DNA from: Escherichia coli
Lineage (GTDB): Bacteria; Pseudomonadota; Gammaproteobacteria; Enterobacterales; Enterobacteriaceae
NCBI RefSeq assembly: GCF_041886205.1
Contig: NZ_CP169029.1
Strand: one strand, 5' to 3'
Length of the DNA stretch: 64,000 nucleotides
The position numbers and the translations under genes are program-made. Under the pieces are notes generated by a model, which was not told the DNA's origin, ran no database searches, and saw only the letters and a list, made by a program, of their open reading frames with translations. How positions within the stretch are numbered: position 1 is the first letter of the stretch; the number at the start of each line of letters is the position of its first letter. Below are positions 2,194-5,194 of this stretch, piece by piece.

Positions 2194-2224
2194 AAAAAAA
2201 CCCGCTGATTAAGCGGGTTTTGAA
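2194..2224. terminator. bidirectional intrinsic terminator between crcB and cspE
   Basis: A-run, hairpin ACCCGCT-gatta-AGCGGGT, T-run; convergent genes on both sides. Confidence 0.7.
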
Positions 2225-2240
2225 TTCTTGCTGACGTATC

Positions 2241-2450
2241 TTACAGAGCGATTACGTTTGCAGCAGAAGGGCCTTTGGCACCGTTAGTGATTTCGAACTC
2301 TACGCGCTGACCTTCAGCAAGAGTTTTAAAACCATTAGTCTGGATTGCAGAGAAGTGTACGAACACGTCTTTGCTGCCGTCTTCCGGAGTAATGAAACCG
2401 AATCCTTTGGACTCATTAAACCACTTAACGTTACCTTTAATCTTAGACAT
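2241..2450 (-). CDS. cspE: cold-shock-domain protein CspE
   Basis: 69-aa [36 protein letters not shown]... ; ORF track start trimmed to ATG at 2450. Confidence 0.95.
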
Positions 2451-2624
2451 CAAAATTACCTTTACATGAAAAATAGACACAAATGCTGTGTCGGTTACCA
2501 GTACACCAATTGTGGTACGCTTTGTCCAGTGCAACTTTACTAAAAAGTGATAAAAGTCGCGTTATTTTTGATGTTACTTATTTTAGTTATTGATTTTAAA
2601 GAAGTTACTAAAACTTCATTTGTC

Positions 2625-3185
2625 TCAAAACTGAAAGCGCATCCAGGCAAAGTAAACATTGCCATTGTTGTAGGTACCCGGAATGTAGGTCATCTGAAAA
2701 GTCACTGGGCCATAACCCACGGAGGCCAATGGCAGTAGAACCGGGAGAGGGATGTAATTCCAGTTATCGCGTGCCGTTACGCCAGCGGTGAATCCCAGAC
2801 CTAAATGAAAATTTTCATCCGCCAGCGGTCGCCAGGTACTTTCCCATCCGTATCCGGCAATCGGTTCCCATTTGTTCCACGAGTCCTTAAATGCCATGGC
2901 ATACAGGCCATGCCAGTTTCCTTTTTCATCCCAACGCGACAGGCCAAAACCGCCACCCCACGGTCGCTCGTTATAGCGATCGGTTTTTTCTTTGTCGTAA
3001 GCGAAACGTGCATGCCAGGTGATGGCAGGAATATATAAATCATAATGTTCAGGCTGTTGCCAGGTTTGTGCAATATTTTCTCTAAACGTTGTCATCCACT
3101 CATCTGCGTTAGCAAAAACTTTACCAACGCTGATTAACTGAATAAAAACAAAGGAAAAGATAGCGACATATTTACTCACGTTCAT
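2625..3185 (-). CDS. pagP: lipid A palmitoyltransferase PagP (CrcA)
   Basis: 186-aa [33 protein letters not shown]... with signal peptide; start trimmed to ATG at 3185. Confidence 0.93.
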
Positions 3186-3670
3186 TTGTGACCATAAAAC
3201 ATTTATCAAAAATCTACTACTAGCATAGCAAAGCTACAATTAACATAACCTTAATAGCCCCAACATAAAGAATAATCTGAATAGCTGCTCTATTTATTTC
3301 CGCTTGTTTAAGTTAAATATTTCCGCGCATCGATTAAAGATGATGCGTCGTTTTCTGCGATGGGAATAGTCAAAAAAGAAAAACCAAGTCTTTTTTGATG
3401 ACAAAATGCAATCAAGGAAATATTTCTTTATTTTTTAATTGGATACAACAATCATCTTAACGAAGTATATAATATATATCGTCAACCCATGCTCATGGTA
3501 GATTATTTTCTGAGCACGCAACCGCAGCTAACACCATTGCGATTAACAAATTTGCATCAATCCCCCATCAATTTACACACATTATTATGTGATAATTGCC
3601 AACCGCTAAATATGCGTTTTGTTATCTACGTATAAAAACAGCAACTTCAATGTGTTAATGGCAGTTTTTC

Positions 3671-3684
3671 TTGATTTTAATCAG
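3671..3684. promoter_or_regulatory. FNR-like box (TTGAT-N4-ATCAG) upstream of dcuC
   Basis: ttgattttaatcag about 95 bp upstream of the dcuC ATG; dcuC is known to be anaerobically induced via FNR; motif match only. Confidence 0.4.
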
Positions 3685-3773
3685 CATTCATCGCCAATTT
3701 ATTGGGCATATTTTTTCCTTAAGTTTTAGGAATTTTTTATTATTTACTTTGGGGCCTGGAGACAGGAAAAATT

Positions 3774-5159
3774 ATGCTGACATTCATTGAACTCCTTATT
3801 GGGGTTGTGGTTATTGTGGGTGTAGCTCGCTACATCATTAAAGGGTATTCCGCCACTGGTGTGTTATTTGTCGGTGGCCTGTTATTGCTGATTATCAGTG
3901 CCATTATGGGGCACAAAGTGTTACCGTCCAGCCAGGCTTCAACAGGCTACAGCGCCACGGATATCGTTGAATACGTTAAAATATTGCTAATGAGCCGCGG
4001 CGGCGACCTCGGCATGATGATTATGATGCTGTGTGGCTTTGCCGCTTACATGACCCATATCGGCGCGAATGATATGGTGGTCAAGCTGGCGTCAAAACCA
4101 TTGCAGTATATTAACTCCCCTTACCTGCTGATGATTGCCGCCTATTTTGTTGCCTGTCTGATGTCACTGGCCGTCTCTTCCGCAACCGGTCTGGGTGTTT
4201 TGCTGATGGCAACCCTGTTTCCGGTGATGGTAAACGTTGGTATCAGTCGTGGGGCAGCAGCTGCCATTTGTGCCTCCCCGGCGGCGATTATTCTCGCACC
4301 GACTTCAGGGGATGTGGTGCTGGCGGCGCAAGCTTCCGAAATGTCACTGATTGACTTCGCCTTCAAAACGACGCTGCCGATCTCAATTGCTGCAATTATC
4401 GGCATGGCGATCGCCCACTTCTTCTGGCAACGTTATCTGGATAAAAAAGAGCACATCTCTCATGAAATGTTAGATGTCAGTGAAATCACCACCACTGCTC
4501 CTGCGTTTTATGCCATTTTGCCGTTCACGCCGATCATCGGCGTACTGATTTTTGACGGCAAATGGGGTCCGCAATTACACATCATCACTATTCTGGTGAT
4601 TTGTATGCTGATTGCCTCCATTCTGGAGTTCCTCCGCAGCTTTAATACCCAGAAAGTTTTCTCTGGTCTGGAAGTGGCTTATCGCGGTATGGCAGATGCA
4701 TTTGCTAACGTGGTGATGCTGCTGGTTGCCGCTGGGGTATTCGCTCAGGGGCTTAGCACCATCGGCTTTATTCAAAGTCTGATTTCTATCGCCACCTCGT
4801 TTGGTTCGGCGAGTATCATCCTGATGCTGGTATTGGTGATCCTGACAATGCTGGCGGCAGTCACGACCGGTTCAGGCAATGCGCCGTTTTATGCGTTTGT
4901 TGAGATGATCCCGAAACTGGCGCACTCTTCCGGCATTAACCCGGCGTATTTGACTATCCCGATGCTGCAGGCGTCAAACCTGGGCCGTACCCTTTCGCCC
5001 GTTTCTGGCGTAGTCGTTGCGGTTGCCGGGATGGCGAAGATCTCGCCGTTTGAAGTCGTAAAACGCACCTCGGTGCCGGTGCTTGTTGGTTTGGTGATTG
5101 TTATCGTTGCTACAGAGCTGATGGTGCCAGGAACGGCAGCAGCGGTCACAGGCAAGTAA
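3774..5159 (+). CDS. dcuC: anaerobic C4-dicarboxylate transporter DcuC
   Basis: 461-aa polytopic membrane ORF matching DcuC over full length. Confidence 0.95.
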   Translation: MLTFIELLIGVVVIVGVARYIIKGYSATGVLFVGGLLLLIISAIMGHKVLPSSQASTGYSATDIVEYVKILLMSRGGDLGMMIMMLCGFAAYMTHIGANDMVVKLASKPLQYINSPYLLMIAAYFVACLMSLAVSSATGLGVLLMATLFPVMVNVGISRGAAAAICASPAAIILAPTSGDVVLAAQASEMSLIDFAFKTTLPISIAAIIGMAIAHFFWQRYLDKKEHISHEMLDVSEITTTAPAFYAILPFTPIIGVLIFDGKWGPQLHIITILVICMLIASILEFLRSFNTQKVFSGLEVAYRGMADAFANVVMLLVAAGVFAQGLSTIGFIQSLISIATSFGSASIILMLVLVILTMLAAVTTGSGNAPFYAFVEMIPKLAHSSGINPAYLTIPMLQASNLGRTLSPVSGVVVAVAGMAKISPFEVVKRTSVPVLVGLVIVIVATELMVPGTAAAVTGK

Positions 5160-5167
5160 ATAGTAAT

Positions 5168-5194
5168 GCCGGAGGCAAGTTTCCTCCGGCTTTA
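5168..5194. terminator. bidirectional intrinsic terminator between dcuC and dpiA
   Basis: hairpin GCCGGAGG-caagttt-CCTCCGGC followed by TTTAT. Confidence 0.7.

Follow-up and report, generated by a model that had tools for sequence, protein, structure and literature searches.

The interval between the divergently transcribed genes pagP and dcuC is very probably an ordinary divergent control region that has already been characterised, and its main elements are published. It lies in a window of 64,000 nucleotides of Escherichia coli DNA. The original prediction had offered two readings of the interval, an unannotated small transcript ended by a hairpin or extended regulatory DNA. The latter is supported by an FNR box that is conserved and bound in ChIP, by a PhoP-type pagP promoter under a sigma70 ChIP peak, and by a conserved distal block. 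The hairpin (3325-3348) appears to be a fortuitous inverted repeat rather than a terminator or a part of an RNA gene.

The spacer and its features

The segment 3150-3830 of the window is 100% identical to E. coli strain LHM10-1 and was found in 5413 of 5426 complete genomes. The orientation of the window is reversed relative to K-12. In MG1655 (NC_000913.3), the spacer corresponds to 655,969-656,556 and contains zero annotated features. Published coordinates (x) were converted to window positions as 3774 − (x − 655,968) for U00096.3 and as 3774 − (x − 655,191) for U00096.2.

That the spacer is AT-rich was correctly recognised at the outset. Its G+C content compares with 51.8% for the window and falls into the lowest 0.1% of 588-nt windows, which makes it the most AT-rich stretch of this length in the 64 kb. 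The length of 564 bp given at first has to be replaced by the RefSeq value of 588 bp, because a longer TTG-initiated ORF (ending at 3209) had been taken as pagP. The spacer was also thought to be longer than a divergent promoter requires, but its length is not special when compared with relatives. We fetched pagP loci from 80 species, in 46 of which dcuC is divergent and adjacent to pagP. Together with the window, 47 spacers were compared, and their lengths in other Enterobacteriaceae range from 281 to 1024 bp. The coordinates of all features are given in Table 1.

Small protein genes were considered as well and rejected, because strains do not preserve the five ORFs (35-48 aa). The ORF of 48 aa lacks its ATG in four haplotypes, and two haplotypes carry a frameshift in it. 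Among the ORFs with a TTG start, two acquire stop codons and the remaining two coincide in part with the conserved dcuC promoter.

Table 1. Features of the pagP-dcuC interval in window coordinates
Feature	Position	Strand or direction	Basis and remarks
pagP (crcA) CDS	2625-3185	−	ATG start at 3185; ORF list and RefSeq annotation of identical or near-identical records
pagP-dcuC divergent spacer	3186-3773		588 bp, 32.1% G+C
Predicted pagP −10, TATGCT	3222-3227	−	Salmonella-like geometry and sigma70 ChIP; predicted start ~3216, leader ~30 nt
Candidate PhoP box, TATTAA-GGTTA-TGTTAA	3240-3256	−	Position, conserved upstream half-site, literature
Partly conserved block AAAGAATAATCTGAATA (AATCAGAAT in other genera)	3267-3283		Alignment
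Hypervariable core within E. coli	3301-3500		Divergence vs O157, ST131 and K-12
"Orphan hairpin"	3325-3355	+	Stem 3325-3332/3341-3348, 8-nt loop, then CGTTTTC (3349-3355)
Inverted repeat TCAAAAAAGA / TCTTTTTTGA, almost all A/T	3370-3398		Weak, −8.8 kcal/mol, z −1.7; polymorphic among strains
Predicted promoter ATGACA-17-AATTAT (Shimada 2014)	3399-3427 in K-12	towards dcuC	−10 altered in the window's strain
Predicted promoter TTAAGA-17-TAAAAA (Shimada 2014)	3460->3432	towards pagP	In-vitro RpoD gSELEX prediction
Distal conserved block ATTAACA-N6-CATCA	3542-3560		Conservation 0.7-0.9 across 47 species
FNR binding site TTGATTTTAATCAG	3671-3684	+	Consensus match, published ChIP, conservation
Conserved TTTATTNGGCA(C/T)ATT	3698-3712	+	Conservation; contains predicted dcuC −10 CATATT (3707-3712)
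Inverted repeat GCATATTTTTTCCT (3706-3719) / AGGAAAAATTATGC (3764-3777)	3706-3777	+	Duplex −17.1 kcal/mol, z −4.8
dcuC CDS	3774-5159	+	ORF list and RefSeq annotation

Promoters of dcuC and pagP

The FNR box has one mismatch to TTGAT-N4-ATCAA, and its position had been predicted exactly. Six one-mismatch matches are present in the window vs 2.7 expected, which is not significant by sequence alone. The significance of the box therefore comes from conservation and published ChIP data and not from the motif match. In 46 of the 47 enterobacterial spacers it is kept with no more than one change, and it always lies 92-106 bp from the dcuC ATG, whatever the length of the spacer. Myers 2013 (PMC3688515, supplementary file 6) lists a bound motif, CTGATTAAAATCAA, at 655,281 (U00096.2) with 12.38 bits. 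This motif is the reverse complement of the FNR box and maps to 3684-3671 of the window. The FNR ChIP summits of that study at 655,298 and 655,340 (U00096.2) convert to 3667 and 3625; these are literature coordinates mapped to the window and not a new experiment. Hence, the FNR ChIP check that had been proposed for this region was already published, with a positive result. In the same work, dcuC belongs to category 1, the directly FNR-activated operons, and its aerobic/anaerobic ratio is 0.05, i.e., expression is ~20-fold higher anaerobically. FNR-dependent anaerobic induction of dcuC is documented there, with Zientz 1999 as cited by these authors. No enrichment of H-NS, Fis, or IHF was seen at the FNR motif itself (Myers 2013, PMC3688515).

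Downstream of the box, a −10-like hexamer CA(T/C)ATT is conserved, with 32 bp between its centre and that of the FNR box. Such a spacing is expected when FNR sits at −41.5, as in class II promoters. Judged from the sequence, the geometry of the dcuC promoter fits class II FNR activation, with a predicted start near 3719. The dcuC entry of Myers 2013 (PMC3688515) carries the remark "TSS not in peak region." With known class II FNR promoters, dcuC shares the near-consensus site 32 bp upstream of the −10-like element, the in vivo occupancy by FNR, and the FNR-dependent anaerobic induction. It differs from them in that the −41.5 position is a predicted one and in that one half-site ends in G (ATCAG); this G is itself conserved across genera.

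The 14-nt inverted repeat at 3706-3719/3764-3777 would pair the −10/start region of dcuC with the ribosome-binding site and the AUG. It is kept in two other Escherichia species with different bases and is absent from other genera. Only RNAs with a start farther upstream than the FNR-dependent promoter would contain it.

On the pagP side, the cross-genus alignment reveals a conserved half-site T(A/G)TTAAG (3256->3250, pagP strand), which is followed after 23 nt by TATGCT (3227->3222). The Salmonella pagP promoter has the same geometry, in which 23 nt separate the −10 element from a box that ends in TGTTAAG, and S1 mapping gave a single start close to the gene (Zwir 2012). The candidate PhoP box TATTAAGGTTATGTTAA (3256->3240) matches (T/G)GTTTA-N5-(T/G)GTTTA at 9 of 12 positions, which is no better than in shuffled sequences. 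As the motif match alone is at chance level, the assignment is based on position, conservation, and literature. In E. coli, the PhoP site of crcA was reported 32 bp from the start vs 44 bp in Salmonella (Harari 2010), and the distance of 32 bp fits the candidate box together with a start near 3216. The sigma70 ChIP peak at 655,742 (U00096.2; Myers 2013) maps to 3223, on the −10 hexamer of pagP. A PhoP-type sigma70 promoter would thus occupy about 3215-3256, within which the exact PhoP box is a prediction.

This arrangement resembles architecture IV of the Salmonella pagP promoter (Zwir 2012), since the gene is orthologous, under PhoP control, and preceded by a T(G/A)TTAA half-site 23 nt upstream of the −10 element. 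There are two differences. The reported E. coli box is one helical turn closer to the start, and the second, distal PhoP box of Salmonella is without an alignable counterpart in the E. coli spacer. Further upstream, the block at 3267-3283 contains an RcsB-box-like match (11 of 14 positions) with a score not above shuffles (P 0.18); an RcsB-like site here is an inference only.

The hairpin and possible transcripts of the spacer

The arms of the predicted stem exist, but they had been placed at about 3337-3363, some 10 nt off, and the loop is GATTAAAGAT and not gattaaa, with CGTTTTC as the tail. It was correct that no plus-strand gene lies upstream, as pagP is read from the minus strand. In its best fold, the hairpin has an 8-bp stem, GCGCATCG/TGATGCGT, with four G-C and two G-U pairs. 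In a six-pair version, CGCATC (3326-3331) pairs with GATGCG (3342-3347) and encloses the 10-nt loop. The tail CGUUUUCUGC offers four U after a two-base gap and passes only a lenient rule of 5 T in 8; an uninterrupted U-tract directly after the stem is not present.

With a ΔG of −9.7 kcal/mol for the hairpin and −11.3 kcal/mol for its 43-nt context (z −1.15), the structure has chance-level stability, and 29 of 200 shuffles fold as well. Terminator-like sites number 45 in the first 20 kb vs 24 in shuffles, and about 0.7 are expected per 588 bp. Among the 45, the hairpin ranks 14th, and many better ones lie inside genes, several of them in pagP and dcuC. Like an intrinsic terminator, it is a short stem-loop with a T-containing tail on the plus strand. 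Unlike one, it combines a weak stem and an interrupted U-tract with the lack of an upstream transcription unit, of a mapped 3' end, and of conservation or covariation. The real terminators nearby (5168-5190 and 2197-2221) have 7-8 G-C-rich pairs and longer T-runs.

Variation among strains affects the stem directly. Of 5376 genomes, 3254 (~60%) have the identical 43-mer, and the other 2122 (~40%) carry at least one change in it. In eight sampled haplotypes, stem substitutions are found in the 3' (right) arm only, and none is compensated. No pair is altered on both sides, and three of the eight pairs can no longer form in 3-5 of the 7 distinct sequences. Imposing the hairpin on the O157-type allele shifts its ΔG from −9.7 to +0.9 kcal/mol. 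None of the sampled strains shows a change in the left arm or the T-run. For E. whittamii and Escherichia sp. E1V33, the two other species of the genus whose spacer was recovered, no alignment of the region could be made, and other genera lack it.

In the complete Term-seq and Rho tables of Adams 2021, neither pagP nor dcuC nor coordinates 655,9xx-656,4xx are listed, and hence no 3' end is reported at the hairpin. This argument is weaker than the others because the cultures (LB and M63) were aerobic and the region is largely silent there. An Rfam scan of 2200-4200 by E-value gave only chance-level matches in the spacer (E 1.7-3.4, far below gathering scores). The sole real match in 2200-4200 was a cspA-type leader upstream of cspE. 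At standard scan thresholds, no plus-strand promoter was found in the spacer; relaxed criteria yielded only weak candidates with 8 of 12 matches, e.g., TCTACT-16-TACAAT at 3213-3240 (plus). In view of its chance-level stability, its uncompensated disruption, and the negative results in sister species, Rfam, and Term-seq, the proposal of an unannotated small transcript ended by the hairpin is not supported.

Three other readings assign the hairpin a role. In the first, a minus-strand transcript would run through the spacer to pagP, either as a long leader or as an sRNA similar to Ssr31, starting for example from TTAAGA-17-TAAAAA, and the hairpin would be a leader structure. The only small RNA that the literature claims for the pagP/dcuC spacer is Ssr31 of Shigella flexneri 2a 301, a 295-nt prediction from promoter plus terminator that has the orientation of pagP and was positive in RT-PCR (Wang 2016). 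The spacer is the same and the organism is a close relative; Ssr31, however, runs opposite to the terminator orientation of the hairpin and is a prediction without northern blot, RACE, or function. The strand specificity of the RT-PCR is unstated, and read-through or DNA carry-over would be detected equally. The start mentioned above is predicted from the RpoD gSELEX peak (Shimada 2014), and other weak promoter-like pairs exist on the minus strand, but these promoters were called in vitro or in silico within AT-rich sequence. The single Salmonella start near the gene also speaks against a long leader, no other part of the spacer is as polymorphic as this sequence, and no U-run follows the hairpin on the minus strand. 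We therefore consider such a transcript improbable.

The inverted repeat could also act as DNA, if a dimeric pagP regulator uses it as its operator or if it belongs to a nucleation site for H-NS. It lies ~110-130 bp upstream of the predicted pagP start, a distance reminiscent of the second footprinted PhoP box of Salmonella at 126 bp, and neither its left arm nor an adjoining direct repeat TATTTCCGC (3295 and 3318) varies among the strains sampled. A palindromic site should keep both arms, whereas here the left arm alone is conserved. The region is not alignable with the Salmonella site. The H-NS high-affinity motif TCGATAAATT is not enriched in the spacer and is not matched by the hairpin loop within 2 mismatches, and known motifs are at chance level, all of which makes this role very unlikely.

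We give the least credence, close to none, to the hairpin as intrinsic terminator of a plus-strand sRNA of ~110 nt, which would diverge from the pagP promoter (e.g., from TACAAT at 3235-3240) only in lineages that keep the stem (K-12 and the window's strain): stem plus CGTTTTC passes a simple terminator scan, the weak promoter pair named above lies upstream on the same strand, the stem is intact in 60% of genomes, and left arm and T-run do not vary among the sampled strains, but only four U are consecutive, the z-score is unremarkable, O157-type alleles destroy the stem without compensatory change, other Escherichia species have no counterpart, and Term-seq 3' end, Rfam match, and standard-threshold promoter are all missing.

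Silencing and hypervariability in the middle of the spacer

Published genetics account for the long AT-rich stretch upstream of pagP. In an hns mutant, pagP is derepressed 18-fold, and its induction in biofilms needs SlyA, for which three similar sites were noted in the promoter region (Chalabaev 2014). It further depends on RcsB and GadE (Szczesny 2018). By gSELEX, the spacer was flagged as an H-NS site, and two further promoters in it were predicted from an in-vitro RpoD peak (Shimada 2014; Table 1). RpoN and NtrC gSELEX peaks were also reported in the spacer.

The AT-rich and fast-evolving middle of ~400 bp would most likely be the platform for H-NS silencing of pagP. SlyA and RcsB/GadE would counter-silence the gene; the genetics are published. 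Long AT-rich upstream DNA, derepression in hns, and SlyA-dependent induction are shared with known systems of H-NS silencing and SlyA counter-silencing.

Motif scans gave little beyond the elements described. Consensus scans for PhoP, ArcA, RcsB, RcsAB, and the GAD box were no better in the spacer than in shuffled sequence, and pattern scans for SlyA, IHF, and NarL had zero matches. A sigma54 motif was sought to explain the RpoN peak, and the best site agreed at 7 of 11 positions, none being convincing. Only an EvgA-like palindrome at 3715-3732 stood out vs shuffles (P ~0.01), and it is poorly conserved. A regulator probably binds the distal block near 3542-3560. Its minus strand shows a direct repeat resembling an ArcA site, TGATG-N6-TGTTAAT with 11-bp spacing, and on this resemblance it may be the ArcA site that was predicted in the dcuC/crcA spacer, without ChIP binding (Park 2013).

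Among E. coli strains, polymorphism in the spacer core (3301-3500) is 5-10 times that of the flanks. Compared with O157, ST131, or K-12, the window's strain has 14-21 differences per 100 nt in the core vs 0-5 (rarely 8-11) in the surrounding 7 kb; the AT-rich citC-dpiB spacer lies within these low-divergence 7 kb. Third codon positions of pagP differ by 0-8% in the same strain pairs. At least five core haplotypes differ mutually at 18-34 of 201 positions (9-17%). The variable arm of the hairpin sits on the edge of the core, and the candidate small-RNA interval lies in or beside these most polymorphic 200 bp of the neighbourhood.

Introgression was considered as a source of the core and rejected, as no E. 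coli allele stands out as closer to the sequence of E. whittamii or Escherichia sp. E1V33. The polymorphism may stem from relaxed constraint together with local hypermutability, from old recombining alleles, or from selection. A more specific idea is that the core is kept as several old, deeply divergent alleles, with the hairpin as an allele-specific feature, and forms a regulatory polymorphism of pagP silencing or of spurious upstream transcription into pagP/dcuC. We regard this idea as doubtful.

The literature already covers the FNR site, the dependence of dcuC on FNR, and the control of pagP by PhoP, H-NS, SlyA, and RcsB. The negative result is useful in itself: a terminator-like hairpin in AT-rich, fast-evolving intergenic DNA should not be taken for a hidden RNA gene unless conservation or 3'-end data support it. 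The sharp local excess of polymorphism in the core is the one point that might repay further work. If selection maintains it, this would tie natural variation of a silenced promoter region to the remodelling of lipid A. If the core alleles tune the silencing of pagP, the palmitoylation of lipid A and hence innate immune recognition would be affected.

Length and variation of the pagP-dcuC spacer

The divergent spacer between pagP (minus strand) and dcuC (plus strand) had been given as 564 bp in the original prediction. Its annotated length is 588 bp, as RefSeq and K-12 place the pagP start at the ATG ending at 3185. The shorter value comes from the longest pagP ORF, whose TTG start codon ends at 3209. 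The region upstream of pagP contains two short direct repeats (see table), and the TATTTCCGC pair does not vary among the strains sampled.

Positions 3301-3500 carry a sharp local excess of polymorphism, with 14-21 differences per 100 nt among E. coli strains. The surrounding 7 kb, including the AT-rich citC-dpiB spacer, shows 0-5 differences per 100 nt and rarely 8-11. This core occurs in at least five haplotypes, with 18-34 differences over 201 positions; in the comparison with other Escherichia species, no haplotype was clearly closer. In strain MINF_8D (locus record L092, 2501-2620 in its own coordinates), an IS1 element abuts the spacer within the loop of the spacer hairpin, and the junction corresponds to 3335/3336 of the window. 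This locus is without dcuC, dpiA, and dpiB; citC comes next after IS1.

The spacer alleles also differ between records labelled O157:H7. Identity to the window is 97.5% for TR01 and 94.0% for 7386WT across 3150-3830, and 87.5% for strain 9.1_Anguil across 3280-3440. These differences suggest either that the locus has recombined or that the records are not labelled uniformly.

Features around pagP and dcuC

Feature coordinates in the window
Feature	Position	Strand	Details
ybeM (deaminated glutathione amidase)	923-1717	minus	intact in the window and in strain LHM10-1
Rfam cspA thermoregulator match	2200-2635	minus	111.6 bits (gathering score 78); spans cspE and its leader
Direct repeat ATAACCTTAATAGC/ATAATCTGAATAGC	3245-3258, 3272-3285		27-bp spacing; upstream of pagP
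Direct repeat TATTTCCGC, two copies	3295-3303, 3318-3326		23-bp spacing; upstream of pagP
ATTAACA-N6-CATCA	3542-3560		FNR box lies about 130 bp downstream
14-nt inverted repeat	3706-3719, 3764-3777		-17.1 kcal/mol, z -4.8
Near-palindrome TTCCTTAAGTTTTAGGAA	3715-3732		at the predicted dcuC start

The cspA thermoregulator is an already known family. Unlike the window copy, ybeM of K-12 strains is a pseudogene by frameshift.

Candidate regulatory elements upstream of dcuC

The ATTAACA-N6-CATCA block is conserved across genera. Its minus-strand sequence resembles an ArcA-type direct repeat.

At the predicted dcuC start, the near-palindrome matches 13 of the 16 positions of an EvgA-type consensus (P about 0.01 against shuffles). 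It is poorly conserved beyond E. coli.

The 14-nt inverted repeat is kept, with partly different bases, in E. whittamii and Escherichia sp. E1V33, and is absent from the other genera compared. By its complementarity, the -10/start region of dcuC would pair with the Shine-Dalgarno sequence and the AUG. Such pairing could silence the translation of transcripts that begin upstream of the FNR promoter.
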